Source: a virus
Reading direction: 5' to 3' (one strand)
Length of the DNA: 64,000 nt
Virus record (IMG/VR): IMGVR_UViG_3300045988_158973
Coordinates: 1-64,000 of that record
A model generated the notes under the pieces. It made no database searches. It saw nothing but the letters and a program-made list of their open reading frames with translations, and was not told the origin of the DNA. Within the stretch, counting starts at the first letter, position 1; each line of letters starts with the position of its first letter. Below, piece by piece: positions 34,918 to 56,675 of this stretch. The position numbers and the translations under genes were made by a program.

Positions 34918-35727
34918 CTACACTTCTACAGCGTCAAAGTCAATATCAAACTTCTTGTACACAATACGCAACTCCGGAACGCCGTTTATGGGTTTCTTCT
35001 TTTCGTCAACACGAGCGTTAAGCGGCCAACGCTTCAAGATAATATCGTGAGCACGCTGTACACGCTCTTGACGCTTGTATACGTCTTGAAGACCGCCGCC
35101 TTGAGTGGCTTCCTTGTTCATTTTGCTCTGGAGAAGGAAACGCACGAACCGCGCATACACGATACCGAGGTACATGCACTTCAACGAATAGTCGATATCA
35201 CACTTCAACTCCAACTTTTCGTCAAAATCCAGTTCCAGCGTGCGTAAGCCTTTGAACACGATGAGGTGAGGGATGCCGCCGTATTTGAAGCGAGGGCTGA
35301 CGTCGGTGCAGTTCCAGTCAAACGCGCTCTTCCCCATGGTCCCGTACTCGAAGTCGGTTTCCATGACTTCGCGGTTGAACTCTTCGAAGAATTCAGCCAA
35401 CTCTTCAGGGGTTTTCAACGAAAGCCCGCATTTGGCTTCGCCGTCAATCGAATAGAAGAAGTTGGCGATATCGTCATCCATGACCACTACCGGGCGCCCC
35501 TCGTGCAGATAGGTGTTCTTACAGAAATTGACTACATAGCTGTAGCCACGATTCGATGCCGGTAGCACGATAAGGCGTTCACGCTCGTGACCCGCTTCGA
35601 CGTATTTCTCGACGTCTTCTTTCTCGACTACGATGTGATAGTCGACGCCGCCCTTTTTCAGCAGTTTGGTCGTGACGCATTTAGGGCGGTTCTTGGACAC
35701 GACGAAGAATTGACAATTCATACTCAA
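34918..35727 (-). CDS. GT-A-like glycosyltransferase, copy 1 (269 aa)
   Basis: Rossmann-like start FFVVSKNRPKCVTT, DxD-type VVVMDDDIANF, and a C-terminal QGGGLQDVYKRQ...RWP. It is a paralogue of 53123..53938 and is reminiscent of TET/JBP-associated glycosyltransferases of phage DNA-modification loci. This was not verified by a search. Confidence 0.5.
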   Translation of the reverse strand: MSMNCQFFVVSKNRPKCVTTKLLKKGGVDYHIVVEKEDVEKYVEAGHERERLIVLPASNRGYSYVVNFCKNTYLHEGRPVVVMDDDIANFFYSIDGEAKCGLSLKTPEELAEFFEEFNREVMETDFEYGTMGKSAFDWNCTDVSPRFKYGGIPHLIVFKGLRTLELDFDEKLELKCDIDYSLKCMYLGIVYARFVRFLLQSKMNKEATQGGGLQDVYKRQERVQRAHDIILKRWPLNARVDEKKKPINGVPELRIVYKKFDIDFDAVEV

Positions 35728-36404
35728 AACGGTAAGTCACCCTCGTACCAAATTTCCTCGGGTGGGTTTTGTTCTATAAAACGTTGATATTTGTTCATCG
35801 TAGGCTCTAACGACGGATAAAAGCGCAGCGCCAGTTCCCACTTAACGTCGAACATATCGCCAACATCAACCCGGCGTTTCATCAACAAACTTTCGCTGCC
35901 GTAGCACTGGACTTGAATCTGGCTACAACCGCGGCGCGTGTACGAATACGGAAAGTCGCGATAGTATTCCGCCCCGGACGCCGTATCATACACCGTATCG
36001 TGCACAAACTGGTTGAAGGGGTTGCCTGCACCCAACGGCGCTAACAGGGTGTATCCGGGGTTGCGGCGCATAAACTTACGCAAATAATCGCGAAGCGTTT
36101 GTTCGGCGAAATTAAGCCCATCAGTCCCGAATTTAGCGCGAAGGTACATATAGACGCTTTCGTAGCTATAATCCCTGTAATGGGTCTTGAAATCGCTGCA
36201 ACGGACATCTTCTAACTCCAAGTCCAGACAGTCCGCGCCGATTCCCAGAAAATCGTACAATTTACGCTGTTCAGCGAGCGACGATGGCGCGTTATCAACA
36301 GTAAGCACCCGAACGTCGTATTCGGGTGCTACTAAAACGTGACAAGCGCTCATCAGGAGATCACCCGCGTGCGGCTCGACACAGAGGTACTTTATTTTTC
36401 CCAT
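35724..36404 (-). CDS. PIG-L/LmbE-like de-N-acetylase (226 aa)
   Basis: N-terminal KYLCVEPHAGDLLMSACHVL resembles the (A/P)HPDD zinc-binding motif of the LmbE/PIG-L family, with a later FVHD. 4-nt overlap with the downstream GT gene. Confidence 0.42.
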   Translation of the reverse strand: MGKIKYLCVEPHAGDLLMSACHVLVAPEYDVRVLTVDNAPSSLAEQRKLYDFLGIGADCLDLELEDVRCSDFKTHYRDYSYESVYMYLRAKFGTDGLNFAEQTLRDYLRKFMRRNPGYTLLAPLGAGNPFNQFVHDTVYDTASGAEYYRDFPYSYTRRGCSQIQVQCYGSESLLMKRRVDVGDMFDVKWELALRFYPSLEPTMNKYQRFIEQNPPEEIWYEGDLPF

Positions 36405-37351
36405 GGCCGTTTGTAAATCTTCTCAGCGCACGGGCCGTCCTTCGATACGTCTTCAGCCATACGGCGAATTTCAGGCGTAATAGGCGGCAGCGTTTTCTTG
36501 CCCATTTTGTCAGGCAGGAATCCGACGCGGACGCTGACGTGTGTACACCCTTGACACGGCCGGAAACGGCGGTCATTGTTGTACAGCATAACGCGAGCGG
36601 CGTGAAAACGCGGATGGTTCCAAAGGTCCTCGATAGGCATATCGTGGATATTGGCGATAGGGTATTCGCCGCGGAAGTCGTCACAGCACAGACACACCTG
36701 GCCATTCCAACGCACATCCAGTTCACGGAACGGGAAGGTACAGCGCTTGTTGTTGAACGAATCGTCGAGCGGGAACGCTGCACCGCAGTGATTGGCCAGG
36801 CGACGCGTCATCTTGTTGGTATCGTCTTCGGCGATAGGCGGCAGCAGGCAGATACGACGCCCCTGCTTGGGATAGTAGTACGGAACGCCCGGTTCCAGCG
36901 TGACGACGTTGTACTTTTCAACGTCGATCTTCTTGACGAAGTTCCAGTCGCCGTTGGCTGTGTAGCAGTCAACCAGTATGTCGTTCATGCCGGCCTCGAA
37001 CAGGCGGTCGAGGTACTCGGACGTGTCAGCGGCGTGGTTCATGGCGTAGCCGTTGCTGTACATATGAAATACGGCCTTCGGTAAGTGCTTGCGGAACGTA
37101 GCCACGATGTCGATGAACGCGGGGTTAAGCGTCGGCTCGCCGTGCATAGCGAACACGAACTTACAGTTCCACCCCACGCGTGCCACCTCCGAAGCAATAC
37201 GCTCGGCGGTTTCAACGGTCATGAAATTCCACGGTTTAGTCCCTTTTTCGCGCATACCGTGAAGACCACAGAACGAACACCCCAGATTGCACCCCTCGGT
37301 CGGCTCGATCTGCATGGTAAACGGGGGGTCTTGTACGATTTTGTTTTTCAT
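36392..37351 (-). CDS. radical SAM enzyme with C-terminal Cys-rich (SPASM/twitch-like) extension (319 aa)
   Basis: Canonical CxxxCxxC in EPTEGCNLGCSFCGLHG. Later Cys clusters are CTFPF...VCLCCDDF...RPCQGCTH. The start codon shares 1 nt with the MuF stop codon. Confidence 0.8.
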   Translation of the reverse strand: MKNKIVQDPPFTMQIEPTEGCNLGCSFCGLHGMREKGTKPWNFMTVETAERIASEVARVGWNCKFVFAMHGEPTLNPAFIDIVATFRKHLPKAVFHMYSNGYAMNHAADTSEYLDRLFEAGMNDILVDCYTANGDWNFVKKIDVEKYNVVTLEPGVPYYYPKQGRRICLLPPIAEDDTNKMTRRLANHCGAAFPLDDSFNNKRCTFPFRELDVRWNGQVCLCCDDFRGEYPIANIHDMPIEDLWNHPRFHAARVMLYNNDRRFRPCQGCTHVSVRVGFLPDKMGKKTLPPITPEIRRMAEDVSKDGPCAEKIYKRPWEK

Positions 37352-38283
37352 TATTTGGTAACTTTAATGTTAAGTTTCACGTTCTTTAACTTTGGGTTCT
37401 TGAATTGACGCTTAACTGGCTTGGTGAAGGCGCGTGTTGCGGGGTCCCATTCGAAGCCGTCAGGAACGAAGTTGATCGTACACCGACAGTAGGGGTGCGT
37501 TGGGTCAATCGTCGGGAGCCATTCAGCTACTTTGCGTCCAATATTGTTACCGTTGGCAATAAGGTCTGCCAAGCGGAACAGTTTCGGCTTTGAGTTGAGG
37601 TCTTCAGGGTCTTCCAAGTACAATTCACGACATTTGGCACACGCGCCGGGGTAAACGTCGAAATACACCTTGGCGTCAGGGCCGTGTTGCTTGAAAATAC
37701 TTTCAGCGCGGCCTACATTGTAGGCTTCATGGAGAAGGTAATACGCAATACGCAGCCAATCACGCCCCCAGTCTTGGGTAAGGTTCCCCAGTTCGCTGGC
37801 TATATACCGCGCTCCCTTACGGAGTTGAACGGCTTGAATGGCCTTGTCTTTGATTTGCTGGCGTATTGCCGATTGCTGACGAAAGTTCGACTTGAGTACA
37901 GCGTTGCGCGTTCCGGTGACGATCCGGTTGCCGAGCGACGTGATGTCGGTATAGGCGCGGTTCTTGAGGTAGTTCAGCGCGTTTTCTTCCTGTTCAGTGA
38001 GTGGAACGAAGTTTCCCGATTTCAAGAACTGGAGAAACTGCTTGTAGTTCATCTTCTTGGCGCGTGTGTCACCGATTGCTTCAGCTAAGATTCCAAACAA
38101 AAAGGCGTGTTCGATGATACCCTTTGAGTTCTTGTACTTATCGACGTTGACGCCCGACGCTACCAAGATATCAATTTCAGACTGCGTAAGGTAGTCCAAT
38201 CCGACGTGTTTGGCAATAAAGAGATACTGCCAACGTCGGAGAATACCGACCATGTCGTCTATTTGGCGGTTGTTGAAAATCAT
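37351..38283 (-). CDS. MuF / SPP1 gp7-like minor head protein (310 aa)
   Basis: C-terminal signature PGACAKCRELY...LPTIDPTHPYCRCTINFVP is typical of the Phage_Mu_F family. Confidence 0.72.
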   Translation of the reverse strand: MIFNNRQIDDMVGILRRWQYLFIAKHVGLDYLTQSEIDILVASGVNVDKYKNSKGIIEHAFLFGILAEAIGDTRAKKMNYKQFLQFLKSGNFVPLTEQEENALNYLKNRAYTDITSLGNRIVTGTRNAVLKSNFRQQSAIRQQIKDKAIQAVQLRKGARYIASELGNLTQDWGRDWLRIAYYLLHEAYNVGRAESIFKQHGPDAKVYFDVYPGACAKCRELYLEDPEDLNSKPKLFRLADLIANGNNIGRKVAEWLPTIDPTHPYCRCTINFVPDGFEWDPATRAFTKPVKRQFKNPKLKNVKLNIKVTK

Positions 38284-39452: not shown

Positions 39453-39624
39453 CCTCGTTTAGTTCTTTAACCGCCGCAGCCGTAGCGTCGGCGATGTATT
39501 TCAAGACATCACCGAGCGCCGCGGCGTTATTGGCGTTCCATTCCTTAATGAATCGGTTCTCGTATTGAGTAACGGTGGGGAATGGCGACGGAAGGAAGTG
39601 TGTATGTTTGGCGTTGTAGGGCAT
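39406..39624 (-). CDS. hypothetical protein (72 aa)
   Basis: Intact co-oriented ORF whose start shares nt 39624 with the stop of the upstream gene. Overlaps the next ORF by 47 nt, so one of the two starts is uncertain. Confidence 0.3.
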   Translation of the reverse strand: MPYNAKHTHFLPSPFPTVTQYENRFIKEWNANNAAALGDVLKYIADATAAAVKELNEDETKKGNLGHTVNED

Positions 39625-41687
39625 TACTCTTCGGTGTTACCGCCGTAGATTTCGAGGAACTTGTCGACGAATTCCTTGTTGGTGCGTTTCATTACCTCGA
39701 TTTGCGCGTCAACCTTCTTGCGGTATTCTTCCGGATCATACTCCCCGCGAAGCGAATCGCGTGCAGCCTGACGCTCGTCAGCGATTTTCTTCAACTCAGG
39801 ATGGTTGAGGAGTTCTTGGCCAACGCCCTTGTCGCGCGACTGCGGATCGGTAAGCGAATTGAGGCTCAAAGCAGCACGCTGGGCCTCCTTGTCGCCGGAT
39901 GCGATCCTTGCTTTCAGAGCGCGGGCAATGCCTTCAGGATTCTTGGCGATCATCTTGGCGTACTCAGCCGGATCAGCCCCTCTGCCGGTTTTCTTGATGA
40001 ATTTATCGGCTGCAGCGTTATCCTTCTCAGGCGAAGACTTTGTAGCTTTGTCGGCCTTGGTGCCCTTTTCAGCACTCTTCACTTCAGCCTTGGCGGCAGC
40101 ATCAGCCTTCTTACCTTGCTTGGTAGCGCTTTCCTCCTCACCGCCGATCAGCGCGTCGAGTTCCTTCTGGCCGTCCTTCGATACCTTCACGCCAGCCATC
40201 TCGAACATATTGGCGATGGTGTCGGCAATTTCGTCGTCCGTAGCGTCGGACTGAGCACCACCAGTGTCAACCGGATTTGCTTTCATGGCTGCAGCCAGCT
40301 CCTTGATGGCCTTGGCGTCGCCTTTCTGCTTTACGAAGGACTTGAAGCCTTCAGTGTCGAAGTCGGTGTCGTTTTCAGCCATGTCGTCGAAACTTTGAAC
40401 GAGGCCCTCGGCGCTGCTGACCTTACCGTCGTCGTTGGCGTCAGCGCGCATCTTGTCGAGCGTGGCTTGGCCTTTCTTCGAAAGTTCGATACCGGCTTCT
40501 TCGAAGATGTTGGCGATCTCGTCAGCGATTTCATCGTCGTTCAAATCGCTCTGAGCCGATTCAGCCTCGTCGGATGCCTTGATGGCGGCGACGAGTTCCT
40601 TGATGGCCTTGGCCTCGCCCTTGTTGTCGATGAGGCTTTCGAGCGCTGCGCCGAAGTCATCGTCTTCACCCGACTCCGAAGTGTAGGCGTCCCACTTGGC
40701 CAGAACGCTTTCACCCGACCCGCGAAGGTTGTCGAGTTCCTTCTTGGCCTCACGCGGTACGCGCGTTCCGGCCTCTTCGAACATATTCTCGATCATGTCG
40801 GCGATCTCGTCGTCAGCCAGATCACTTTGCCCGGCCTCGCTGGGCATCTTACGGATGGCGTCGGCGATTTCCTTCACGGCCTTACCGCCTTTTTCCTTCA
40901 CGAACGATTTGAACGACTTGGCGTCGAAGTCTGCATCGCCCTCAGCCATAGCGTTGAAACTGTCAACGAGCGATGCGGCGTCAGCCTTTCCGCCCTTACC
41001 CTTGGCGTCGGGATCGCCAAACTTAGACGCGGCTCCCTCAACGTCGCCGATCTCCTTCACCGTCACCGACTCGAAATTGTCCACGTCGGCGTAGGGGTAT
41101 TTGTCCACGCGGTAGCCCTCGCTGGTCTTGGTGACTACAAGGTCGAAGCCGTCTTCGTCACCGCCGATCTGCTTGATGAAGGCGTGCGAAGCGTCCTCAA
41201 CTCCGGCGTACTGCTGGAGGTCCTGATCGTCCATCTGACGGAAGCCCATGCCCTCGAACGTCGATGCCGATTTGGCGTCACCGTCAGCCAGCCCGTTACG
41301 CAGCGACGTGTCGCCGTTCTTGTTCTTGGCGCGAACGCTTACACCGCGGCGTTCCAATTCAGCGGTAGCCACCTTGCGCATTTCGGGGTCAGCCTGCGGA
41401 TCGTTGGCAACCTTCGTCAGCGCCTCCTCCGAAGCCTGACGAGCGTGGTTCTGGAGGCTGACATTTCCCTCAGGCATACCACCCTCCTGGCCTTCGCCTT
41501 CAGGGTCTTCCTTGGCGGCTTGGCCGTACTCCTGTCCCACGCGCTGCAGACGACGGTTTTGAGCGTTGTCGGTGTAGACACCGTGACGCGCTTTTTCGAT
41601 CGGCTCTTCCGCGGCCTCCTCGGGGTTGGTGAACCCTTTAAGAATTTGCTGGCGACGCGCTTCGCCGTAGTTGATAACTTCTTTCAT
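39624..41687 (-). CDS. acidic repeat-containing protein, possible internal head / scaffold-like protein (687 aa)
   Basis: Three tandem ~90-aa repeats, very D/E/K/A-rich, and an N-terminal EKAR...NRRLQRVGQEYG motif. The mirror plus-strand ORF is rejected. Confidence 0.6.
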   Translation of the reverse strand: MKEVINYGEARRQQILKGFTNPEEAAEEPIEKARHGVYTDNAQNRRLQRVGQEYGQAAKEDPEGEGQEGGMPEGNVSLQNHARQASEEALTKVANDPQADPEMRKVATAELERRGVSVRAKNKNGDTSLRNGLADGDAKSASTFEGMGFRQMDDQDLQQYAGVEDASHAFIKQIGGDEDGFDLVVTKTSEGYRVDKYPYADVDNFESVTVKEIGDVEGAASKFGDPDAKGKGGKADAASLVDSFNAMAEGDADFDAKSFKSFVKEKGGKAVKEIADAIRKMPSEAGQSDLADDEIADMIENMFEEAGTRVPREAKKELDNLRGSGESVLAKWDAYTSESGEDDDFGAALESLIDNKGEAKAIKELVAAIKASDEAESAQSDLNDDEIADEIANIFEEAGIELSKKGQATLDKMRADANDDGKVSSAEGLVQSFDDMAENDTDFDTEGFKSFVKQKGDAKAIKELAAAMKANPVDTGGAQSDATDDEIADTIANMFEMAGVKVSKDGQKELDALIGGEEESATKQGKKADAAAKAEVKSAEKGTKADKATKSSPEKDNAAADKFIKKTGRGADPAEYAKMIAKNPEGIARALKARIASGDKEAQRAALSLNSLTDPQSRDKGVGQELLNHPELKKIADERQAARDSLRGEYDPEEYRKKVDAQIEVMKRTNKEFVDKFLEIYGGNTEE
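40140..40973 (-). repeat. three tandem ~270-nt coding repeats (aa ~239-516 of the 687-aa protein)
   Basis: Repeat core: DFD..FKSFVK.KG.AKAIKE.A.A.K......QSD..DDEIAD.I.NMFEEAG......G.KELD. Copies start near aa 239, 331 and 427. Confidence 0.8.
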
Positions 41688-45042: not shown

Positions 45043-45300
45043 TTAGCGTGAATATACGTAGGTAGCGCGGTCGGCCCACACGAAATTGTAACTCATGTCG
45101 CCAATGGGGTATTCGGTGATGGTGATTCCGTCGGCGGTAGTCTCACGCTCGATGCGCCACCCGGCTTCGCCTTGGCCCGTACCGATGGGGGCATAGCCGC
45201 GGTAGATCACGCTGCCGCCGGAAGCGTCGATGATAGGCTTGGGCATAGCGTCAGCCAACAGCTGTACGATGGGCGCGGTGTTCTTCTCGTTACTCGTCAT
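45043..45300 (-). CDS. hypothetical small protein (85 aa)
   Basis: Intact co-oriented ORF overlapping the portal stop by 11 nt. Confidence 0.4.
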   Translation of the reverse strand: MTSNEKNTAPIVQLLADAMPKPIIDASGGSVIYRGYAPIGTGQGEAGWRIERETTADGITITEYPIGDMSYNFVWADRATYVYSR

Positions 45301-47050
45301 GGTTTATTGCTTTTTGTAAGTATTCATCGAATGCGGCCACGAGCGGATTTGCCTCACGGGCCTTCATAGTTTCTTCTTCATCGCCTTGGGCGTAGAGATC
45401 GAACGGGTTGCCGGCCTGCGCTTCATCGTCTTCCTCACCTTCGCCGCCAGCCACAGGTTCATCGGCCGGGCCGCCAGCAACCTCCATACCCATACCCGCG
45501 GCCTCTTCGAACGGGTTGCCGCCGCCCATACCACCCATCGCCTGTTGCTGTTGTTGCTTGGCGCTGAGTGCTTGCTGGATGACGGCGTTCTCGATGGTGT
45601 CGCCACCCTTTTCTTCGCCGATAGCCGGGAGGTCCCACTTCTCGCGAATCTCGTCCACGGTCTGGAAGGCTTGAAGGCGTTTGATGTCCATATCCAGCTC
45701 TTCGGAAATGGTCATTCCGTTGAGGCCCATGAATACGAATTCGAAGTCAGGGTTGATTTGCTCGACTATGAATTTGTTGAGTTTACGCTGGATGAACTTC
45801 AGCATCGGGTAGAGGCCCTTGTCCTTGGACTGCTCCATGCGCTGCTTTTGGCCATCGCCGAACGTCAGGCCGCTGCCGTTGGAACGAGAAATGTCCCACC
45901 CGATTTCCGTCGGGTCGATACAGAATACAGCACACGCGATCTTGATCAGGTATTCCATCCACGAGTTGTACTCCATATCGCGGTTGTTCTTCTGGAGATC
46001 AACCCAGTCGATATCGCCCTCAACGACGGGCGTCTTCCACGACTGCATAACGCCTGATATCATGGCCTGCCACTGCTGCTTGAACTGCTGAAGTGAAGCC
46101 TCATTGACGTTACCCTTGATCCGAAGAAGACCCTTCGGCGCTGATCCTTGAGAGAAGAAGCGGCGGTTGTATTCGTCACCCCAAAGCATCGATGTAACGA
46201 CGTTAATCAGTTCTTCCAATTCAGAGTTTCCGTACCCGTTGGCGTAGATCGACGTGGTCGGGTTGCGTATACCGAAGCACAACTCCCACGGATAGAACTG
46301 CGCCACCTTGGCTGTTTGGTACACCTGAACGTAGGCCGGATAATAGCCATCAACCTTTGGACCCCAGTTTTGGCGGTCATCCATCATAGCGCCGTCAAAA
46401 TACGGGTTGTTGTATTCACCGTCGAAGTACGATTCAGCCAACCGGAACGTCGCAGCATCGACGGCTTGAAACCGTACCAGTTTGCCGCGGCGGTTACGAA
46501 TGCACTCAAACGTCATCTGGTCGAACGTCAACGAGTCGTCAACGATTTTACGAATAAACTCGTCAAACTCGTCGCCGTCCCAAGTGGCGGTATCACCGCA
46601 ATTGAGAATGAAGTCGGTGATGGAGGCCGCAATCTTGCGGTCTTGAGAATCCATCTTCTGCTCTTGGCCGAATTTCGGTTTACGACGAATGACGAATCCC
46701 GTAGAATAGCGGTCGGCCTGTGGTTCGGCAAAGTCGGCTATTTGGTTCTTGCGGGTCTTGAGGATTGAGTTGATGATGGGGGTGCGGCTCATCCGGCGCA
46801 GTGTCTCATACGAGAGCGAAAACGGCTTATCCTTATACCCCAAAAACGAATTGAACTCCAAAGGATCGATCAAGTACGCCTTCGGGGCAACGTTAGCAGG
46901 CTTGGATTGCTGATTGAATATTTCAGCGGCTTTGAGTATATCGGACGGGTTGTCGCTGCTCAACGCACGCTCTACCAACAGCGACTTGCGTATTGTTAGA
47001 GCCTGCATGGCACGTTCCACCGATTCCAATCTTTCTTTTACACCGGACAT
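45290..47050 (-). CDS. portal protein (586 aa)
   Basis: Core region ...GYGNSELEELINVVTSMLWGDEYNRRFFSQGSAPKGLLRIKGN...EYNSWMEYLIKIACAVFCIDPTEIG matches the conserved portal core pattern. Gly/Met-rich acidic C-terminal tail. Confidence 0.75.
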   Translation of the reverse strand: MSGVKERLESVERAMQALTIRKSLLVERALSSDNPSDILKAAEIFNQQSKPANVAPKAYLIDPLEFNSFLGYKDKPFSLSYETLRRMSRTPIINSILKTRKNQIADFAEPQADRYSTGFVIRRKPKFGQEQKMDSQDRKIAASITDFILNCGDTATWDGDEFDEFIRKIVDDSLTFDQMTFECIRNRRGKLVRFQAVDAATFRLAESYFDGEYNNPYFDGAMMDDRQNWGPKVDGYYPAYVQVYQTAKVAQFYPWELCFGIRNPTTSIYANGYGNSELEELINVVTSMLWGDEYNRRFFSQGSAPKGLLRIKGNVNEASLQQFKQQWQAMISGVMQSWKTPVVEGDIDWVDLQKNNRDMEYNSWMEYLIKIACAVFCIDPTEIGWDISRSNGSGLTFGDGQKQRMEQSKDKGLYPMLKFIQRKLNKFIVEQINPDFEFVFMGLNGMTISEELDMDIKRLQAFQTVDEIREKWDLPAIGEEKGGDTIENAVIQQALSAKQQQQQAMGGMGGGNPFEEAAGMGMEVAGGPADEPVAGGEGEEDDEAQAGNPFDLYAQGDEEETMKAREANPLVAAFDEYLQKAINHDE

Positions 47051-47087: not shown

Positions 47088-47411
47088 TCAACACAACAGT
47101 TTCAAAATGTCGTTCCGTGCCGTTTGCCTGATAATCAGAGCCCGATGGACGATATCGCCCCACACAGCCACCTGATAACCATTCCACGTGAAATAGTCCG
47201 TCTGGTCGTCATACGAACCATTCCATTCACCGTCGTGACGTATATCAACGATCAAACGATCAAACCGCGCTTTTTCTTCCGTGGTGAAGGGTGTTATGAA
47301 AGTGCCGACGACTACTAATCGTGCGGCACTCGTAGACAGGTCATCGGCCATAATCTGAAAGTCGATACCCATAAAATCGCCCGTTTCAAGAGGCGTGTGA
47401 AAGGTTATCAT
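47088..47411 (-). CDS. hypothetical protein (107 aa)
   Basis: Intact ORF with a 4-nt overlap to the upstream gene. Confidence 0.4.
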   Translation of the reverse strand: MITFHTPLETGDFMGIDFQIMADDLSTSAARLVVVGTFITPFTTEEKARFDRLIVDIRHDGEWNGSYDDQTDYFTWNGYQVAVWGDIVHRALIIRQTARNDILKLLC

Positions 47412-48418
47412 TGCCCCACTAATTTACGAGTTTGAGGTTCAAATGTAGAACGCTGCTTACCTTCGCCAATACGCATTTTCCAATACTTTTGGTACTCACA
47501 CAGCCACATTTCCACCTGATGAAGCGTTATTTCTCCCACACGCGATACGCGGTAACGCCACCCGGCGCGGTCCCAGTGTAGGTATGGGAAATTACCTAAC
47601 TTCGCCAACTCGTCGCGTGATTCATCGCGCAGGCGATATATTCCATCCACCTGACGTTTCAACGACGGAAATATCAACCGCAACCCAATCGAGGCGCCAG
47701 GCCCTACGTTGGTATAGTCGTCTTGAGTAAAACGCATGAAACGACGCGTGGTGTAGCGTGATATGTAGGTGAAGTCTTGGTAAAATTCGTGAGCGATGAA
47801 TGTAGCCGATGAAGGTAAACTGCGTAAAAACCTGATGATCTGTTCGGGGGTTTCAGCCGCCAATACCGTCCGTATCAACTCACCCAAGCGCTGGTGTAAC
47901 GTGGGAACCACCAAGTGCGTGTAGCAGTAGTCGCGCGGTTTACCGGGCGTGGCCATCGAATTGATCAAATACGCCGTGGTGTAAGGGTTGTTTCCCGACG
48001 CACGGTACGCAGCTATCATCTCTGCGAAGCGATCTTCGTCGTATTGGTCGTAATCCGGAATTCCCGCCTTCCAACCATATCGTTCTTGAGCGAATTCGAA
48101 CGTTGCAGGATTATTGAAGTACCGAAACACCATCGTCTTCCAAACCAAATTCGTCAACGAAAGTAGCGGATCGAGGATGATGTTTCGTATTTGCCACTGC
48201 GAATTGCGGTCCAACTCGCGGTATACGTTGGTGAACTTATAGTCCCTTAAGATCGGATCTTCGGTCCACGGACGCGGCGCTCCATCCAAGAAGCGGCGTT
48301 TCCATATCATCTGGCGCTCGAACATCGTTCTGAAGAACTCCGAGCGGTGCTCTTCGCTCACGTCCAGCGTTTCATCAGGTAGCTTATCTGCCCACGCATA
48401 ATTATCAAAGGTCGCCAT
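47408..48418 (-). CDS. aGPT-pyrophosphorylase-like DNA base (thymidine) hypermodification protein (336 aa)
   Basis: N-terminal FERQMIWKRRFLDGAPRPWTEDPILRDYKFTNVYRELDRNSQW matches, from memory, the hallmark W.RR...PWT.DPIL..Y.FTNVYRE.DR.T region of the alpha-glutamyl/putrescinyl thymine pyrophosphorylase families. A profile search is needed. Confidence 0.6.
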   Translation of the reverse strand: MATFDNYAWADKLPDETLDVSEEHRSEFFRTMFERQMIWKRRFLDGAPRPWTEDPILRDYKFTNVYRELDRNSQWQIRNIILDPLLSLTNLVWKTMVFRYFNNPATFEFAQERYGWKAGIPDYDQYDEDRFAEMIAAYRASGNNPYTTAYLINSMATPGKPRDYCYTHLVVPTLHQRLGELIRTVLAAETPEQIIRFLRSLPSSATFIAHEFYQDFTYISRYTTRRFMRFTQDDYTNVGPGASIGLRLIFPSLKRQVDGIYRLRDESRDELAKLGNFPYLHWDRAGWRYRVSRVGEITLHQVEMWLCEYQKYWKMRIGEGKQRSTFEPQTRKLVGQ

Positions 48419-48719
48419 GCTGTTTACGATAGCTTCTAATTAACAATTCTCGTCGCGCTTCAACGCTCTTCCCAGTCAACCGCACCAACGTACCATCCGG
48501 AACCTTCATCAACGGACGTTTAGGAGCGTTTACAAGTCGTACCTCCCCGACGCCGAGGTTTACCCTTATGCGGCGACCGCGAATCGGTTTGAGGGACTCG
48601 CCAGTGATTAACGGACAGTAGTCGTTACCGTGAAACGCGCGTATTACAAACGTCGTCCGACCCCAAACTTCAGGGTCTGCAACGACATCACCTATTCTGA
48701 AATATTTCCATTGGTCCAT
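48405..48719 (-). CDS. hypothetical protein (104 aa)
   Basis: Intact co-oriented ORF. Confidence 0.4.
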   Translation of the reverse strand: MDQWKYFRIGDVVADPEVWGRTTFVIRAFHGNDYCPLITGESLKPIRGRRIRVNLGVGEVRLVNAPKRPLMKVPDGTLVRLTGKSVEARRELLIRSYRKQHGDL

Positions 48720-51568: not shown

Positions 51569-51849
51569 TCCATCACCAAATTACCTTCACACTCCAAGGC
51601 ATACAACCGTTCAGCGTCTGGTTTGGCGTAACAGAATATCAATTTACCGCCGCCAGCGGCTTGTAGTGCCTTACGGTATGCAACCTTGATACGCTGAAAG
51701 GTTTCACTCCTGTAAAAGTCGTAGTCGCTGACGCATATCTCCCACCACCGTTCTTGGCGTGACGCCCAGGAAATTACTCCTGGGCGTTCGGCTTCGATTC
51801 GCTTTACAGCGGCCAACATCAACGAACCGTGTCGGCGATCTGGTTTCAT
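51562..51849 (-). CDS. hypothetical protein (95 aa)
   Basis: Intact ORF with a 4-nt overlap to the upstream gene and a 7-nt overlap to the downstream gene. Confidence 0.4.
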   Translation of the reverse strand: MKPDRRHGSLMLAAVKRIEAERPGVISWASRQERWWEICVSDYDFYRSETFQRIKVAYRKALQAAGGGKLIFCYAKPDAERLYALECEGNLVMDC

Positions 51850-52433
51850 AACGTTTCGTCGAGGTTTTGAGCCAGTTCAGCCAACAGTTTCACGTGTACA
51901 CGCTCGTCAGCAATAATCTTGTTAATCAACTGAACGGCCAACGTAGAAGTCACGGTCGGCGTAGGGTTGCTGGATTGAATGCGCTGGATGAGTTTCTCGT
52001 ACGAAGTGATGGTGTCTTGCTCGGCGCGGAGGTTGATCATCACCGCTTCGATGGGACTTTCGGTCGTAATGTTCACTTTGGCTGCCGAAAACACGGGCTT
52101 CGATACGGCGTGACCCAGATGAGCGATGAAGTCGCCTAAACGATCGTAGTGCTTCATTTCGGTCAGCGCGATTCCCAAGAACGTTTCGCCAATCTGGTCG
52201 AAAAGCATTCGCTGCTGCGTGTACTGGAGAATGGCCGTGAGTTCCGACGTCTCGTTGATGCCGGCGTATGCCTTGTAGAACCACTCGGCCGGAACGCCAT
52301 CGTCGGCTTTGGCCTTGGAAATATCCGGATAATCGACTACATGGTCGGCGAAGCGCATCGACTCTACCATGGCGTCAGCCATCGCTTCGACGTTATCCTG
52401 TTTGGCAGGATTGTGTAAGAGTATCGTTTTCAT
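51846..52433 (-). CDS. ferritin-like di-metal (Mn-catalase/CotJC-like) protein (195 aa)
   Basis: Duplicated E...ExxH ligand pattern: SELTAILQY ... ALTEMKHYDRLGDFIAHLG and AEQDTITSY ... IADERVHVKLL. Confidence 0.6.
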   Translation of the reverse strand: MKTILLHNPAKQDNVEAMADAMVESMRFADHVVDYPDISKAKADDGVPAEWFYKAYAGINETSELTAILQYTQQRMLFDQIGETFLGIALTEMKHYDRLGDFIAHLGHAVSKPVFSAAKVNITTESPIEAVMINLRAEQDTITSYEKLIQRIQSSNPTPTVTSTLAVQLINKIIADERVHVKLLAELAQNLDETL

Positions 52434-52445
52434 GAGTTACGAGTA

Positions 52446-53126
52446 TTAATATCCACCGTCCGTGGTGTGACCGTCGTTATCGATACGTTTCCAGTAGCCG
52501 CAGTCCTCGCACTGGTAAAGAACCGTGTCGTCTAAGTCCTTCGTTACCGACATCGGCGAGCCGCAGCGCGGGCACGGTTTCACGTCTTCGTCCCACACGG
52601 CACGCGGTGTTTCCTTTTTGACCGTTGACCCGAAACCACCCGTGTCGCGCTTCGACGGAGTGAGTTCTTCAACCCAACCGGACTCAATTTGGGGCGCAGG
52701 CACGATGACCAGCTGGGCTACGACATCACCGACGGCGAACGCCTTGGAATGTATCGGGCGGGGATTGACACAGAGTTTTCCGACTCCGTGACTATACGTC
52801 TGTAGTTTACCGGCAATCTTCTGCCACAGCGTCGGTGCGTGGAAGACGTTTTTGTAGCGAGCGCGCATCGTACCACGATACCCCGGATCGATCACCCCCG
52901 GCGCGTTACACATCACCAGGTCCTTTTTCGAACAGCGCGAATTGGGGACCAAAAAGCCGCAGTACCCCTTGGGTATTTCAACGGCCACGCCAGTGTCGTA
53001 TTCGATGTAGTCTTCGGTTTCCTCGATCGACACAGCCACGAGGTCCAGTCCGTTGTCTTCGCCGTCGGGGTGAGCGTATGTCGGGAGAACAGCGTTGGGG
53101 TGTACTTTCTTGAATTTTACGTTCAT
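52446..53126 (-). CDS. dut: trimeric-type dUTPase fused to a C-terminal zinc ribbon (226 aa)
   Basis: All five dUTPase motifs are present: I PTYAHPDGEDNGLDL, II PNSRCS, III GVIDPGYRG, IV GDVVAQLVI, V RDTGGFGST. There is a ~45-aa insertion between motifs III and IV. The C-terminal Zn ribbon is CPRCG-x17-CEDCG. Confidence 0.82.
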   Translation of the reverse strand: MNVKFKKVHPNAVLPTYAHPDGEDNGLDLVAVSIEETEDYIEYDTGVAVEIPKGYCGFLVPNSRCSKKDLVMCNAPGVIDPGYRGTMRARYKNVFHAPTLWQKIAGKLQTYSHGVGKLCVNPRPIHSKAFAVGDVVAQLVIVPAPQIESGWVEELTPSKRDTGGFGSTVKKETPRAVWDEDVKPCPRCGSPMSVTKDLDDTVLYQCEDCGYWKRIDNDGHTTDGGY

Positions 53127-53938
53127 TTCTTGTATCCTTTTAAGTGTATTTTGACTTCGATCATTTCACGATCCTTCATTTCGCCACCCCAGTTGGTGCA
53201 CCGCTTGGTACGAAGGGTGATATACTCGGGGAACGCTTCTCTTAAACGTTGTGACTCGGCATTGGAGTTCTCGATAGTTCGATACACGGAGCAACCGCCA
53301 GCGGCGTTGGCTCCTGTCATTTTATCGAACGAATACTGGTACGAAACCACGTTATCCAATCCCGCACGGCGTAAGCCACACGCCACCGCAAAATCTTCCT
53401 TGATGGGCCACTCGCTGAATCTCACAGGCTGGCTCAGATACTGCTCGATGTTCAGCCCCCAAATGGAGAAGAACCGCCCGTTGATCTGTACGTCGTGTTC
53501 CTTATCGCGGTTGAAAGGACGGTACGAAAGCGCCGCCACGGCATAGGTGTCCAGCTGTTCAGCCACCCAGTCGAACATCATCGAGTAGATATATTCTTGA
53601 GCCTCGACGGTGAAATTGTCGTTGTTTATGACTACAGGGGTCTTGGCATCGTCTAAACGTAGCGAGAAAGACACGTTATCGTCTAAAAAGAAGACTCCGC
53701 CAAATCCCCGATTTTGGGCCTCTACAACAATGTAGTCGCGTATATCCCCCACGCCGCGACACGCCGTGCTGTATTCCTCGATGCCGCCAACCTTACCGCC
53801 CCAGTTACGGCGATGAACCGCCAATTCGCCGGGGTGACAGAATACGGTCACGCGCCGACGCGCTTCAGGAGTGAGACGTTGAAGGGTTTTCTGACGGTCA
53901 ACACGACCACGAGTGAATAGTGCTATCAGAGTTTTCAT
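53123..53938 (-). CDS. GT-A-like glycosyltransferase, copy 2 (271 aa)
   Basis: IALFTRGRVDRQKT, DxD-type VFFLDDNVSF, and C-terminal AAGGCSVYRT...AFPEY. Paralogue of 34918..35727. 4-nt overlap with the dUTPase gene. Confidence 0.5.
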   Translation of the reverse strand: MKTLIALFTRGRVDRQKTLQRLTPEARRRVTVFCHPGELAVHRRNWGGKVGGIEEYSTACRGVGDIRDYIVVEAQNRGFGGVFFLDDNVSFSLRLDDAKTPVVINNDNFTVEAQEYIYSMMFDWVAEQLDTYAVAALSYRPFNRDKEHDVQINGRFFSIWGLNIEQYLSQPVRFSEWPIKEDFAVACGLRRAGLDNVVSYQYSFDKMTGANAAGGCSVYRTIENSNAESQRLREAFPEYITLRTKRCTNWGGEMKDREMIEVKIHLKGYKK

Positions 53939-53957: not shown

Positions 53958-56675
53958 CTAACCTAACATATCAAACTTAAAGCCCGTAGTCATACGCGAA
54001 GCAGCCAAGTCGGCCAACCAGAACGACGACGAAATATCGTCGTGACTGCCCACGCTCTCCAATCCTTTTTCGGTGAAAGCCACTGAACCGAGGTCTTGGA
54101 AAATGAGGTCCTTGACCTGTTGTGAGTATACGTTACCCACGGGGATATGTATCTTACCGCGTTCAAAGAGCGTCGAAAGGTGCGGCCAACCAGTTTTCAG
54201 GTCGTATTTATCAATACCCGTAGTGTGGCCGATAACAGGCATACCTTCAGTGTCGGCGGCTTCAACGAATATCTGTTGGAAGGTGTTATTCTCCATCACG
54301 ATCAGATCTGGACGGAAACGGGAATTGATACGGCGCAGAACGTTCATCTGCTCGAAGAACTTCACGCCCTTTTCACGGTACAGGTGTAACAGCCAACGCT
54401 CGTCAGTCAATTCGTCAATTCCCCACACGCTGAATACGGCGTAGTCGGCGCCGACGTTGGCTGAAATGGCGAAGTCGCACCCAACGACCACCTTGGAGAA
54501 TTTAACAGGGAACTCTTCACGTGAATCCACCAACGTGTAGTTCTCCATTCGTAGCAACGCGCGTGTAAGAATTTCCATCGGGAATATAGACGACTCGTTA
54601 GTGATCGGGCGGCAAAGGTTCTCGCGCGAGAAGATGATCGATCCTTGGGTCTCCTTTTTGTCCATCAGGTCCTTAAACGACCACCGTTGAGGCCAAAGAA
54701 TTCGTCCGTCAGGGAAGATAGCTGGGTATTCAATCACAAACCAGCCGTTCTTCGTCTTCAAGTCGCCGTAAAGGTCTTCGGCGTGGAACGGCGTACCAAC
54801 AACGATAATCTGGCCGCCGGGGACGAGCATATTCATAATCACCGAGTGGAAATAGTCGGTGGACTTATTTCGTTGGAGACTGGAGTAGATGACGTTGTCC
54901 TTCAGGCCGTCGTCAACGATAATCCAGTACGGGTGAGCACCGCGCACCGACGATCCAAAGCCCTTACCCGTCAAACGCGCTCCGTTGCGGCACACGATAT
55001 TGGTAGCTGACCAGTTGTTGGCCGTTGACTGGGGGAACAGCCGCTCTTTCAGAATCTCGTTTTCTTCGATGGTTCCTTTCAGAATCTCCAAAAGGTCAAC
55101 GCTCTGCTGTAGCGAGAACGAAAATAAGAATCCGCGGTTTGACGACGCCACGGTTGGACGCTTTGAATAACGAGTTGTTGAGGGACGTTTGTAACGGTAT
55201 AGCTGCCACGCGGCGTAGGCGTTGGAGAAATAGAACGAGTTGTGAGTCACCGTACCATCACCCAACACGAAGCGGTGGTCGCCGTCGGTGGTGATAGACA
55301 CATACTCGCCTTCGCCAACGGGCGTAATTTTCAACGACGATACCACGCTGGGGTGTATACCGTTGATCGTGCCCCATTTTTTGTGTGACGTCTTTGAGGC
55401 CCAGTCGGTGACGACTTTCTTACGAGCGATCTTTACCGGAATACGGTCCAGTTCGCCAGAAATAGTCACGACCCACGACGCATAGTCACGACCCAACGCT
55501 TTACAATACCGCGTTCCGCCACCTAATCGTGTACAGAAACCGAGGCTATCAGCCAAATTCTTCACATCACGCGCCAGCTGGTGGTTCGTGTTGCTGAAAT
55601 GATAGCCGCCCTGCCAATAGTTACCGTCGGAGTCTATCAACCCTGCCAACACCTGGAGACGAACGTCTTCGCTGTTGACGAGGTATTGGTCGGGAATGTG
55701 TTTGTTGAAAAGTAGGTTGTAACCCTTTAGCATCCTTTCCAGCGGGTTACGCTTACCGCGTCCACGGGTGTCAATTCCAATCGTCACCGTCATACCCTGC
55801 TCGCCATAGTGAAGTCCTAAACGCTCGGCGTAACCGCGTAAATACTCCGCAACTTCAGGGTCGGCGGTGGTGATCTTTTGGTTGTTGGAATTTCCGTCAC
55901 CTAACCAGTACCCCAAGAAATACGGTTCCAGCCCTACAGGTCGCGCTGGATATTTCACCGCCACCTTGAAGCCGCGATAACGCTCTCTTACCCAGTTTGG
56001 GGCTTTACTCAACAGCGTTGGTATATCAACGTCAACGATTCGTTTACAGCAGCGCTCAACGCTTCCGTCGCGTCCTTTTTCGATTAGCGTACAAATGTGA
56101 CGCGAATTGACGGTGTAGCTATCACCGCGCGACTGGTCGATACGGTACATAATCGAATCATGACCGCGGTGCGTAGCAACCACGCGACGCGGTTTAGAAT
56201 CAACACCCATCAACAGGTCTCCAACGACAACGTCTTCGACCTTTTTGATAGTTCCATCGTACATTCTTACGGGAGTGCCAACGGCTTCGCATTTTCCGTG
56301 GTCACGCGCAGCGTTGATACACAGTTTCTTGTACTGGTGTACCAACTCACCCCACTCCAAGTGGTGCCACGACAGTTGGAAGTCTGGTATTACAGAGGTG
56401 ATGAAATACGTCAAATTGGCGCACCTCAAGGTGTCTTCCACCACGGCAGCGACGTTCTCTTCATAGCGGGGCTTAAAATCGATCGACACGTCGCCAGTAT
56501 ACATAATCCGGTACGTGTCTTCCATCAAGGCGTCGAATATCGTATCAACGTCGTGTATATCGCCGCTCATCATTTCATTCAGACCCCGCTCGTCCATACC
56601 CTCGATAATTTCATCAACGAGGTCCAAACAAGCCAAGCGGTGTGTCACCGAGGGAGCTGTAATTTCAGGCATCAT
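53958..56675 (-). CDS. terL: terminase large subunit, interrupted by an intein (905-aa precursor, ~554-aa mature)
   Basis: Walker A ARDHGK/S is split by the intein. Walker B is YWIIVDDGL. The RNase H-like nuclease motif is VVGCDFAISANVGADYAVFSVWG. Confidence 0.85.
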   Translation of the reverse strand: MMPEITAPSVTHRLACLDLVDEIIEGMDERGLNEMMSGDIHDVDTIFDALMEDTYRIMYTGDVSIDFKPRYEENVAAVVEDTLRCANLTYFITSVIPDFQLSWHHLEWGELVHQYKKLCINAARDHGKCEAVGTPVRMYDGTIKKVEDVVVGDLLMGVDSKPRRVVATHRGHDSIMYRIDQSRGDSYTVNSRHICTLIEKGRDGSVERCCKRIVDVDIPTLLSKAPNWVRERYRGFKVAVKYPARPVGLEPYFLGYWLGDGNSNNQKITTADPEVAEYLRGYAERLGLHYGEQGMTVTIGIDTRGRGKRNPLERMLKGYNLLFNKHIPDQYLVNSEDVRLQVLAGLIDSDGNYWQGGYHFSNTNHQLARDVKNLADSLGFCTRLGGGTRYCKALGRDYASWVVTISGELDRIPVKIARKKVVTDWASKTSHKKWGTINGIHPSVVSSLKITPVGEGEYVSITTDGDHRFVLGDGTVTHNSFYFSNAYAAWQLYRYKRPSTTRYSKRPTVASSNRGFLFSFSLQQSVDLLEILKGTIEENEILKERLFPQSTANNWSATNIVCRNGARLTGKGFGSSVRGAHPYWIIVDDGLKDNVIYSSLQRNKSTDYFHSVIMNMLVPGGQIIVVGTPFHAEDLYGDLKTKNGWFVIEYPAIFPDGRILWPQRWSFKDLMDKKETQGSIIFSRENLCRPITNESSIFPMEILTRALLRMENYTLVDSREEFPVKFSKVVVGCDFAISANVGADYAVFSVWGIDELTDERWLLHLYREKGVKFFEQMNVLRRINSRFRPDLIVMENNTFQQIFVEAADTEGMPVIGHTTGIDKYDLKTGWPHLSTLFERGKIHIPVGNVYSQQVKDLIFQDLGSVAFTEKGLESVGSHDDISSSFWLADLAASRMTTGFKFDMLG
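55239..56291 (-). mobile_element. intein with LAGLIDADG homing endonuclease (351 aa, Cys129..Asn479) in the TerL P-loop
   Basis: Block A CEAVGTPVRMYDG follows HGK directly. The LAGLIDADG motifs are YFLGYWLGDGN and VLAGLIDSDGNY. The C-terminal splice junction is VTHN/S. Confidence 0.85.

Follow-up and report, generated by a model that had tools for sequence, protein, structure and literature searches.

Thymidine hypermodification in phages ViI, M6, SP10 and PhiW-14 follows a pathway with two defining features, a P-loop kinase that acts on 5-hydroxymethyl-2′-deoxyuridine (5-hmdU) in DNA and a transferase from clade 2 of the alpha-glutamyl/putrescinyl-thymine pyrophosphorylases (aGPT-Pplases), family names that reportedly come from Iyer et al. 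2013 (Iyer and Aravind). Clade 1 of these proteins is large and occurs in all the classic hypermodifying phages, yet it has stayed a loose end in this field since 2013. Here we describe a clade-1 gene carried by a 64,000 nt stretch of viral DNA (IMG/VR record IMGVR_UViG_3300045988_158973, positions 1 to 64,000), which is called the window throughout. The gene is an open reading frame (ORF) of 336 aa with an ATG start, located at 47408..48418 on the minus strand in the ORF listing of the window. It represents the Pfam family PF18723, which is here one of the core genes of a large clade of uncultured phages where the supply genes for 5-hmdU are present and where both the kinase and the proven transferase are apparently absent. 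Many members of this clade also carry DNA glycosyltransferases.

According to a comparison from 2018, hypermodifying phages carry two paralogous 'DNA-glycosylase-fold' genes each, with the exception of SP10, which has only one, fused to a kinase (PMC5889632 Table 3). The published biochemistry concerns clade 2. Members of proven activity are M6 gp51, ViI gp247 and PaMx11 gp46; Lee et al. give the last of these under the Pfam name 'aGPT-Pplase2', and its activity is that of a glycine:DNA transferase (PMC8989533). Work from 2021 showed that transfer in M6 requires both the kinase and the clade-2 protein and no more than these two, and the product of the 5-hmdU DNA kinase is a monophosphate, 5-phosphomethyl-dU (5-PmdU), not a pyrophosphate (PMC8989533). 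Clade-2 proteins are now named amino acid:DNA transferases (ADDTs). In the crystal structure of PaMx11 gp46 (PUGT) with DNA, the thymine is flipped out and held between Trp146 and Cys247, Glu243 holds an essential metal, and Cys247 is the proposed nucleophile that attacks C6 of the base (PMC11472151). M6 gp51 and ViI gp247 both require the equivalent Cys and its neighbouring Glu, and an ADDT supplied with borohydride turns 5-PmdU into T (PMC8989533). ADDTs can also form C–O bonds, as in ViI. 5-hmdU is missing from the virion DNA of SP10, PhiW-14, M6 and ViI, in which whatever is not hypermodified is converted to T after replication (PMC8989533). SP10 makes alpha-glutamylthymidine with a clade-1 domain as its sole paralogue (PMC5889632 Table 3), which argues that clade 1 can be catalytic. 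SP10 gp186 is a fusion of a PF18723 domain to the kinase, and no second paralogue was detected in SP10, as judged from the published table.

The protein encoded in the window is, by its sequence, a clade-1 paralogue and not a member of the clade of proven activity. Its match to PF18723 in a hmmscan search of Pfam extends over profile positions 4-279 of 281, with a score of 175.6 bits (cut-off 25) and an E-value of 1.8e-51, and the match to PHROG 2396 has an E-value of 3e-49. No match to PF18724 was obtained at E<=0.01. Database homologues number 668 at E<=1e-5, the best match in GenBank being a protein of YungSlug, and a search of a representative library with the family retrieved 3,488 clusters (50% identity) at E<=1e-3. 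The best-scoring members of PF18723 are mostly standalone proteins of approximately 290-400 aa. Pfam has abandoned the aGPT-Pplase name and currently calls PF18723 'HMUDK_hel' (5-hmdU DNA kinase, helical domain) and PF18724 'ADDT', and we therefore equated aGPT-Pplase1 with PF18723 and aGPT-Pplase2 with PF18724 indirectly, through scans of reference proteins and through database labels. PF18723 is matched by the ViI gp160-type protein (sal1_136, 4e-83), by the C-terminal half of SP10 gp186 (2.4e-44) and by PaMx11 gp50, which is of the M6 gp55 type (5.6e-41), and PF18724 ('ADDT, amino acid:DNA transferase') is matched by PaMx11 gp46 (1.6e-27). The GenBank label of the ViI gp160-type protein is 'alpha-glutamyl/putrescinyl thymine pyrophosphorylase clade 1', and homologues in GenBank and UniProt are labelled 'aGPT-Pplase1 domain-containing protein' or 'Pplase1 ... 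clade 1'.

A sequence-only reading of the window had proposed that an N-terminal block of this protein (residues 33-75, FERQMIWKRRFLDGAPRPWTEDPILRDYKFTNVYRELDRNSQW) resembles the aGPT-Pplase families, and the full-length Pfam match, together with residues of the block that are invariant in 11/11 family members, bears this out. The same reading held that these families build 5-substituted thymidines via a pyrophosphorylated intermediate. The first part is correct for clade 2 (ADDT, PF18724) and does not extend to clade 1, to which the present protein belongs; the second must be corrected, since the characterised systems use the monophosphate 5-PmdU (PMC8989533), and a pyrophosphoryl mechanism is both superseded and without support in the present case.

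To relate clade 1 to the proteins of known chemistry, we compared folds and family profiles. An AlphaFold (AF2) model of the window protein, made with 32 homologues, has a predicted local distance difference test score (pLDDT) of 89.7 and a predicted template modelling score (pTM) of 0.88. It is all-alpha except for one short beta-hairpin and has a fold like that of the helix-hairpin-helix (HhH) DNA glycosylases. When the model was compared by Foldseek with predicted viral structures (BFVD), the top match was SP10 gp186 (E 1e-14, template modelling score, TM, 0.76), with further matches to proteins of phiRSL1 (TM 0.73) and PhiW-14 (gp72-type, TM 0.61) and to 'Pplase1 clade 1' proteins, and then to an ADDT-domain protein of Mycobacterium phage LilMcDreamy (E 0.023, probability 1.0, TM 0.47-0.52). 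Among 350,542 PDB chains, the three best Foldseek matches were all chains of PaMx11 gp46/PUGT (8Z2M/8Z2N, with 8Z2N the top match; E 0.13-0.31, probability up to 0.85, ~300 aligned columns, TM ~0.4), and the neighbours that follow are mostly HhH DNA glycosylases (Ogg, AGOG, EndoIII, MutY, AlkA). The sequence profile of the PF18723 family found no relative in the PDB at E<=10. Alignment of 11 clade-1 with 8 clade-2 sequences by hhalign gave an E-value of 2.7e-4 over 124 columns with a probability of 42%; a single-sequence hhalign comparison with PaMx11 gp46 was not significant, and marginal significance was reached only with family alignments.

This marginal alignment pairs the residues of most interest. 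The clade-1 segment V-E303-x3-C307 is placed opposite V-E243-T-x2-C247 of the ADDTs, and G-x-F207-x3-E211-x3-D215 opposite G144-P-W146-x3-K150. Written as motifs, '[LM]-x-x-[VIL]-E-x-x-x-C-E-x-x-K-Y' of clade 1 corresponds to '[IL]-Q-E-V-E-T-x-x-C-K' of clade 2, and 'G-x-F-x-[AS]-[YHN]-[EQ]-x-x-x-D' to 'G-P-W-x-x-F-K-x-x-D'. The C-terminal motif of the window protein itself reads E303-x3-C307-E308-x2-K311-Y312. Across 11 diverse family members R35, P50, F62, N64, R67 and D70 of the 'hallmark' block are invariant, as are F207, D215, the GPG hairpin at 239-241, C307, E308 and K311 (11/11 in each case). Structure and profile comparisons thus appear to tie PF18723 to ADDT with marginal significance, and they align C307 and E303 with the catalytic Cys247 and Glu243.

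Part of the phage genome lies outside the window, and we examined it through a close relative. An identical PF18723 protein is encoded on a 99-kb metagenomic contig, and a 99%-identical protein on a 100,969-bp circular IMG/VR contig that served as proxy genome (walked in four steps, with positions 1-63,623 assembled conflict-free). Proxy and window share ~94% identity over their main common block and are circularly permuted, such that the window corresponds to positions 37,025-100,969 plus 1-120 of the proxy and 37 kb of genome are outside it. These 37 kb form a replication module encoding an SF2 helicase, DnaB, a DnaG-type primase, a RecA-like protein, Mre11/Rad50-like proteins, UvrD and two GIY-YIG/NUMOD3 endonucleases. 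Also outside the window, a run of genes at L133 9577-15031 of the proxy genome, near the two endonucleases, encodes a 408-aa protein of the thymidylate synthase (TS) family and, directly after it, a DnaE-type PolIII-alpha replicase (1186 aa) and an HD/YfbR-like 5′-deoxynucleotidase. A PolIII-alpha replicase is unusual in an SPO1-like lineage.

The best phage matches of the TS-like protein are the SP10 dUMP hydroxymethylase (44.5% identity) and SPO1 gp29 (44.9%), and it is also matched by the enzymes of SP8, CP-51, YungSlug and PaMx11. It scores 174 bits with SP10 gp188, compared with no more than 73 for any PDB chain and no more than 64 for any thymidylate synthase. The catalytic Cys is retained, and the motif 'GLPTN' carries an Asn where CMP/dCMP hydroxymethylases have Asp. 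We therefore take the protein to be a predicted dUMP hydroxymethylase of the SPO1/SP10 type with the uracil-specifying Asn. Its dUMP would probably be supplied by a dUTPase/dCTP-deaminase-like protein of 226 aa with a C-terminal zinc ribbon, which is encoded within the window at 52446..53126 on the minus strand (PF00692 E 2.2e-8, PF22769 E 5e-5, phrog_135 dUTPase E 7.5e-31). Hydroxymethylase, dUTPase/dCTP-deaminase-like protein and HD nucleotidase make up the classic toolkit by which 5-hmdUTP replaces dTTP. Because an SPO1/SP10-type hydroxymethylase is found beside PolIII-alpha and the HD nucleotidase in the proxy genome, it is likely that the DNA of this phage is built on 5-hmdU. The portal protein shows ~40% identity to its counterparts in Chryseobacterium phage MA9V-3 and in SPO1-like Herelleviridae, which fits a distant kinship with the 'hmU phages'. 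We describe the phage as a myovirus of ~100 kb that distantly resembles SPO1 and belongs to a large clade of uncultured phages.

The enzymes that would be expected to act next in the characterised pathway were sought in several ways. Pfam scans of ORFs of at least 137 aa from the window and the proxy genome revealed no match to the 5-hmdU DNA kinase families PF18748 and PF18747 or to PF18724. Searches of the genome by phmmer with PaMx11 gp49, SP10 gp186 and PaMx11 gp46 gave no match, and hidden Markov models (HMMs) made from four kinases and eight ADDTs gave 0 matches among the ORFs of 140 related IMG/VR loci. No tailoring enzyme dependent on pyridoxal phosphate (PLP) or FAD was found in the genome. 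Canonical Walker A motifs occur genome-wide only in helicases, a RecA-like protein, a 585-aa protein and a structural-module protein with an M23 peptidase domain; no small protein of the genome carries one. The 585-aa protein (33126-34883, minus strand; Walker A GGAGVGKS at residue 220) is a core protein with at least 50% identity across the whole phage clade, and one source labels a homologue 'ClpB protein'. As a candidate for a hidden kinase it is unlikely, being a core protein of the clade with a ClpB-like label and with no Pfam, kinase-family or PDB match. The Pfam scans extended to E 0.01 or 0.001 and the local kinase HMM was built from four seeds; within these limits, the phage appears to lack both enzymes by which the characterised pathway is defined.

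What the phage does encode are two GT-A glycosyltransferases of the TAGT family. TAGT1 (271 aa; 53123..53938, minus strand; PF20691 E 6.7e-13, phrog_842 E 7e-28) is homologous to LuckyBarnes gp39/gp40, PhiJL001 gp22 and phiRSL1 ORF233/234, and its gene adjoins the genes for the dUTPase-like protein and a ferritin-like protein. TAGT2 (269 aa; 34918..35727, minus strand; PF20691 E 3.8e-13, phrog_842 E 2.4e-18) lies next to genes for a radical S-adenosylmethionine (SAM) enzyme and a 226-aa protein with an LmbE motif, and upstream of that for the 585-aa protein. TAGT proteins are phage DNA glycosyltransferases that structurally resemble the trypanosome base-J glucosyltransferase, and in metaviromes they are neighbours of TET-like dioxygenases or of genes of the thymidylate-synthase family (bioRxiv 10.1101/2023.12.21.572611). 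The direct action of this family on DNA is taken from the same work (bioRxiv 10.1101/2023.12.21.572611). On its own the PF18723 gene does not imply a pathway of the ViI/M6/SP10 type; it is the hydroxymethylase together with the TAGT glycosyltransferases that argues for a modified thymidine.

Other genes may contribute to tailoring. The radical-SAM enzyme, which also has a SPASM domain (319 aa; 36392..37351, minus strand; PF04055 E 1.7e-16, PF13186 E 2.6e-12), is a possible tailoring enzyme; a phmmer search of the genome with SP10 gp185 gave no match, and the two are thus not detectably related. The 226-aa protein (35724..36404, minus strand) is an LmbE/PIG-L-like candidate by its N-terminal 'VEPHAGD' motif (PHxxD) only, with no match in Pfam, PHROG or PDB sequences. 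These two genes are located directly upstream of TAGT2 within the structural module and are found in only 9-10 of 80 related loci, and the pair at 35724-37351 looks like an inserted cassette for tailoring of a sugar or side chain. A 310-aa protein encoded beside the radical-SAM gene (37351-38283) has only a weak match to a head-protease PHROG and was left out of the modification set. A ferritin-like/rubrerythrin di-metal protein (195 aa; 51846..52433, minus strand; PF00210 E 1.7e-8, PF02915 E 3.6e-5) is present in 49/80 related loci and, even at 59% identity (L167), lies beside the dUTPase/dCTP deaminase (DCD)-like gene and a TAGT; it could belong to the nucleotide or modification module.

These findings bear on the remaining claims of the sequence-only reading. 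It had stated that the hydroxymethylase and the 5-hmdU DNA kinase are not in the window, and had called for a scan of the rest of the genome for both; an SPO1/SP10-like dUMP hydroxymethylase is indeed present in the 94%-identical proxy, but a kinase was detected neither there nor in the 140 loci. Its description of the neighbouring enzymes holds for two glycosyltransferases, the radical-SAM/SPASM enzyme and the di-metal protein, while the deacetylase can be recognised by motif only, with no Pfam or PDB match. The view that this gene implies hypermodified thymidine is only partly supported: the implication comes from the hydroxymethylase and the TAGTs, and membership of PF18723 does not by itself carry it.

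The association of these genes recurs well beyond the window. The PF18723 gene adjoins the portal gene in 80/80 related IMG/VR loci. At least 21 of 51 full-length loci encode a TAGT near it, a lower bound because at 59% identity the TAGT gene is found 8-10 kb upstream, where the fetched flank ends; in relatives at this distance, the DCD/dUTPase gene adjoins the TAGT gene. Cultured phages carry more compact versions. The Brevibacterium phage LuckyBarnes has a tight operon of gp41 (TS-like hydroxymethylase), gp40 and gp39 (TAGTs) and gp38 (PF18723), and in 50.0 of its 50.8 kb searched a kinase and an ADDT are neither annotated nor detectable. The Alphaproteobacteria phage PhiJL001 encodes PF18723 (gp19), a TAGT (gp22) and an SPO1-like hydroxymethylase (gp24), and the Ralstonia phage phiRSL1 encodes TAGTs (ORF234/233), a sulfotransferase-like protein (ORF232), PF18723 (ORF231) and a hydroxymethylase (ORF230). 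The phiRSL1 genes form a run of six headed by a nucleotidyltransferase (L162 1-5090), which hints at a sulfated or nucleotidylated sugar on thymidine in this jumbo phage. A module of hydroxymethylase, PF18723 and one or more TAGTs is therefore common to LuckyBarnes, PhiJL001 and phiRSL1. Elsewhere, the PF18723 gene abuts that of the hydroxymethylase in SH-Ab 15599 and lies near an SP10-type kinase gene in YungSlug. Its presence in 80/80 loci, set against at least 21/51 for TAGT, and its pairing with the hydroxymethylase indicate that PF18723 tracks 5-hmdU synthesis. Our search of the literature found nothing relevant on glycosylated 5-hmdU in hydroxymethylase phages or on the DNA chemistry of PhiJL001 or LuckyBarnes, and we came across no published DNA chemistry of phiRSL1.

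Given this distribution, the reading that we favour, with a probability of approximately 0.5, is that the PF18723 protein is a catalytically active ADDT paralogue that would work on 5-hmdU DNA as part of a glycosylating pathway with no kinase. From the family, fold, motif and gene content described above we infer its catalysis, substrate, order of steps, nucleophile and final base as follows. Before replication, dTTP would be replaced by 5-hmdUTP through the hydroxymethylase, the HD nucleotidase (encoded ~37 kb away) and the dUTPase/dCTP-deaminase-like enzyme. After replication, the PF18723 protein would act on 5-hmdU, or a derivative of it, in DNA, as ADDT does. It would bind DNA through the GPG loop of its helix-hairpin-helix and flip the base out against Phe207, whereupon Cys307 would add to C6 of the pyrimidine. 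Expulsion of the substituent on the C5 methyl, helped by Glu303/Glu308, would leave an exocyclic methylene that could be captured by a nucleophile. Candidate substrates are free or glycosylated 5-hmdU, the incoming group may be an amine, a hydroxyl, a sugar or a hydride, and the reaction may take place before or after those of the glycosyltransferases. Partners would be one or two JGT-like TAGTs, with possible tailoring by the radical-SAM/SPASM and LmbE-like proteins. Because the partners are TAGTs and no kinase or ADDT is detectable, the final base is most likely a glycosylated derivative of 5-hmdU. A stronger version holds that the protein is self-sufficient, a kinase-independent 5-hmdU DNA enzyme that would open the hydroxymethyl group at C5 directly by means of Cys307 and would yield, with the TAGTs and the radical-SAM/LmbE-like set, a previously undescribed sugar-bearing thymidine analogue. 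We advance this version tentatively and consider it rather doubtful.

Several points weigh against a catalytic role of this kind. Hydroxide is a poor leaving group unless it is phosphorylated, which is the weakest point of any kinase-independent mechanism, and a TAGT alone could glycosylate 5-hmdU with no need of PF18723 in that step. Reconstitution in M6 lysates works in the absence of the clade-1 protein gp55 (PMC8989533), and our literature search found no reaction assigned to, nor activity shown for, PF18723 or clade 1. Current Pfam curation ranks PF18723 as a 'helical domain' of the kinase, a label that we think undersells the family. The tie between clade 1 and clade 2 is weak (hhalign probability 42%, Foldseek E 0.13 in the PDB, TM ~0.4). 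E303 is retained in 9/11 clade-1 sequences, being replaced by Gln in LuckyBarnes and by Ser in phiRSL1, and neither the ADDT metal ligand Thr244 nor the leaving-group pocket is recognisably conserved in the PF18723 protein. A very divergent kinase may have escaped our searches. Finally, both the presence of the hydroxymethylase and the absence of the kinase are read from a 94%-identical proxy, and nothing weakens the reconstruction as a whole more than this reliance on genes beyond the window.

Other roles for the protein are conceivable. An attractive one is that it makes thymine at the level of the polymer, through the same Cys-C6 chemistry but with reduction of the methylene, such that non-hypermodified 5-hmdU (or an activated form) becomes T. 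All four phages whose virion DNA lacks 5-hmdU after conversion to T (SP10, PhiW-14, M6 and ViI) carry PF18723, and phages of the SPO1/SP8 type, which keep their 5-hmdU, are absent among the PF18723-matching phage records seen. The formation of T from 5-PmdU by ADDT with borohydride shows that the fold supports such chemistry, and PF18723 tracks the hydroxymethylase more tightly than it does any tailoring enzyme. However, no motif for a hydride donor (flavin, NAD(P)H or folate) and no partner reductase was identified, SP10 would be left without a glutamate transferase, and the correlation comes from few genomes and is purely inferential; we judge this role to be unlikely. The protein might alternatively serve in a pathway of the ViI/M6/SP10 type, where a divergent P-loop kinase or a kinase of the host would activate 5-hmdU and PF18723 would exchange the phosphate for an amine or hydroxyl. 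Among the characterised hypermodifying phages and relatives of SP10, PF18723 and the 5-hmdU DNA kinase do occur together: they are fused in SP10 gp186, their genes adjoin in PaMx11/M6, and in YungSlug they lie near each other. The genome of the present phage also has several unannotated ORFs, among them the 585-aa Walker-A protein beside TAGT2. This is quite unlikely in view of the lack of PF18748/PF18747 matches in sizeable ORFs, of any small Walker-A protein in the genome and of any match to the kinase HMM in the 140 loci. The 585-aa protein is moreover part of the clade core, with a ClpB-like label and no kinase-family match, and LuckyBarnes too has no detectable kinase.

About as unlikely is a non-catalytic accessory function, in which a helical module recognising DNA or 5-hmdU would target or scaffold the kinase in other phages and the glycosyltransferases here. 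The Pfam description and the fusion in SP10 are in keeping with it, and the kinase domain of SP10 gp186 is active alone and M6 gp55 dispensable in vitro (PMC8989533). Yet the best-scoring members of the family mostly stand alone and no kinase was found in this genome, and it would be hard for a mere scaffold to explain why the alignment places its invariant Cys-Glu and its base-clamp aromatic opposite the catalytic residues of ADDT. That the protein is a conventional HhH DNA glycosylase, excising a base such as U, T or one of host type, is very improbable. The glycosylases that follow PUGT among its PDB neighbours, and the GPG hairpin, would fit this function, but those matches have TM values of 0.2-0.33 by query and 0.23-0.48 by target with E>1. 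The protein also has no conserved Asp or Lys after the HhH hairpin, and its invariant residues are those shared with ADDT. A role as small terminase subunit can be regarded as effectively refuted. Residues 133-315 match phrog_800 'terminase small subunit' at E 2.8e-7, the gene is situated between those for the probable terminase and the portal, and SP10 gp186, PAKlein3 and phi1_146029 proteins bear the label. This partial match is 42 orders of magnitude weaker than that to PF18723 or phrog_2396, the labelled proteins are kinases or PF18723 members of hypermodification clusters (SP10 gp186 and PaMx11 gp49 being proven kinases), and the gene sits in a replication/nucleotide module in LuckyBarnes and PhiJL001. 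The labels are annotation carry-over. They constitute a trap for annotators, as GenBank- or PHROG-derived 'terminase small subunit' entries are attached to SP10 gp186, PaMx11 gp49, PAKlein3 and Klebsiella phi1_146029 proteins that are in fact 5-hmdU DNA kinases and PF18723 proteins.

The window is clearly that of a tailed phage, with genes for baseplate J, an M23 peptidase, an SU10-type capsid protein, portal, a FEN-type exonuclease and a DEDDh exonuclease, nearly all on the minus strand. A megablast search of GenBank phages with the 14 kb around the PF18723 gene gave no match. The PF18723 gene is downstream of that for a 905-aa intein-bearing protein, and the portal gene (45290-47050, PF04860) comes directly after it. 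Its start is overlapped by 14 nt by an upstream ORF of 104 aa (48405..48719, minus strand), a homologue of which adjoins the PF18723 gene in 75/80 related IMG/VR loci. Between the PF18723 and portal genes is an ORF of 107 aa (47088..47411, minus strand) that has a 4-nt overlap with the PF18723 stop codon and is found in 23/80 related loci, the closest relatives only. Neither small ORF has a match in Pfam or PHROG. The overlap of the PF18723 ORF with both is an operon-like, translationally coupled arrangement. The 905-aa protein (53958-56675, minus strand) contains an intein of the PI-SceI/VMA1 type (Hint plus LAGLIDADG), inserted after '...AARDHGK/C' and ending at '...VTHN/S', within a Walker-A-like GK[ST] motif. 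By position its host protein is probably the large terminase, and it has no terminase match in Pfam. A highly acidic protein of 687 aa (39624-41687, minus strand) with ~3 long internal repeats ('DDEIAD.I.N.FEEAG...') and no Pfam family is encoded between lysis-like genes and the radical-SAM/TAGT2 cluster.

If PF18723 proteins prove to act independently of the kinase, they would represent a third route to thymidine hypermodification, beside kinase plus ADDT and TET/JBP plus glycosyltransferase. This route would be used in a ~100-kb, uncultured and apparently human-associated clade, and independently in LuckyBarnes, PhiJL001 and phiRSL1. These three are culturable and carry the module in compact form, and the role of clade 1 is directly testable in them. 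The locus also raises the question of whether some phages have base-J-like DNA whose glycosylated hmU derives from an hmU pool formed before replication. New chemistries of this sort bear on how phages resist restriction and CRISPR and on the artefacts that arise when viromes are sequenced, and they are of value as enzyme tools.

Comparison with the known systems places the window protein, as judged from its alignments, as a new and divergent member of a known family. The clade-1 proteins of hypermodifying phages (SP10 gp186 C-terminus, ViI gp160, M6 gp55/PaMx11 gp50 and PhiW-14 gp72) belong to the same full-length family, have the same fold (TM 0.61-0.76) and share with it the invariant residues and the association with a dUMP hydroxymethylase, but they are only 24-30% identical to it. 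In the phage of the window the protein stands alone, no kinase, ADDT or PLP enzyme is detectable in the genome, and TAGTs accompany it. The ADDTs compared (PaMx11 gp46/PUGT, M6 gp51, ViI gp247, PhiW-14 gp109, and the Pplase2 proteins of SH-Ab 15599 and YuA) include its top structural match in the PDB and have in common with it the HhH-glycosylase-like fold, a base-clamp aromatic and the [VI]-E-x3-C motif. By analogy, the window protein likely shares their flipping of the base and Michael addition of Cys to C6 on a 5-substituted uracil in DNA. They differ from it in the N-terminal half, in the leaving-group pocket and Thr metal ligand, which are not kept, and in having as substrate 5-PmdU, which calls for a kinase of which none was detected in this phage.

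The glycosylated systems offer a second comparison. T-even phages with their hydroxymethylcytosine (hmC), the 5mYOX/ThyS plus GT-A systems of Pyle et al. and base J with JBP and JGT all proceed, as we propose here, through a hydroxymethyl-pyrimidine that is then decorated by a glycosyltransferase. The gene content of the ThyS plus GT-A type is found here as a hydroxymethylase in the proxy genome and two PF20691 proteins in the window, and tandem or dual glycosyltransferases suggest a di- or modified glycan. In contrast to the T-even, TET and JBP systems, the base is predicted to be hmU, not hmC, and to be made before replication by a dUMP hydroxymethylase; the ADDT-like PF18723 component has no counterpart in the T-even, ThyS plus GT-A or base-J systems. 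The same three-part module is seen in LuckyBarnes, PhiJL001 and phiRSL1, which are of unrelated virion types and hosts and whose genes are tightly clustered, whereas here the genes are dispersed over ~60 kb. The system overlaps with the recently catalogued ThyS plus GT-A pathways and adds to them an ADDT-like component that, as far as we have found, has not been discussed for them.

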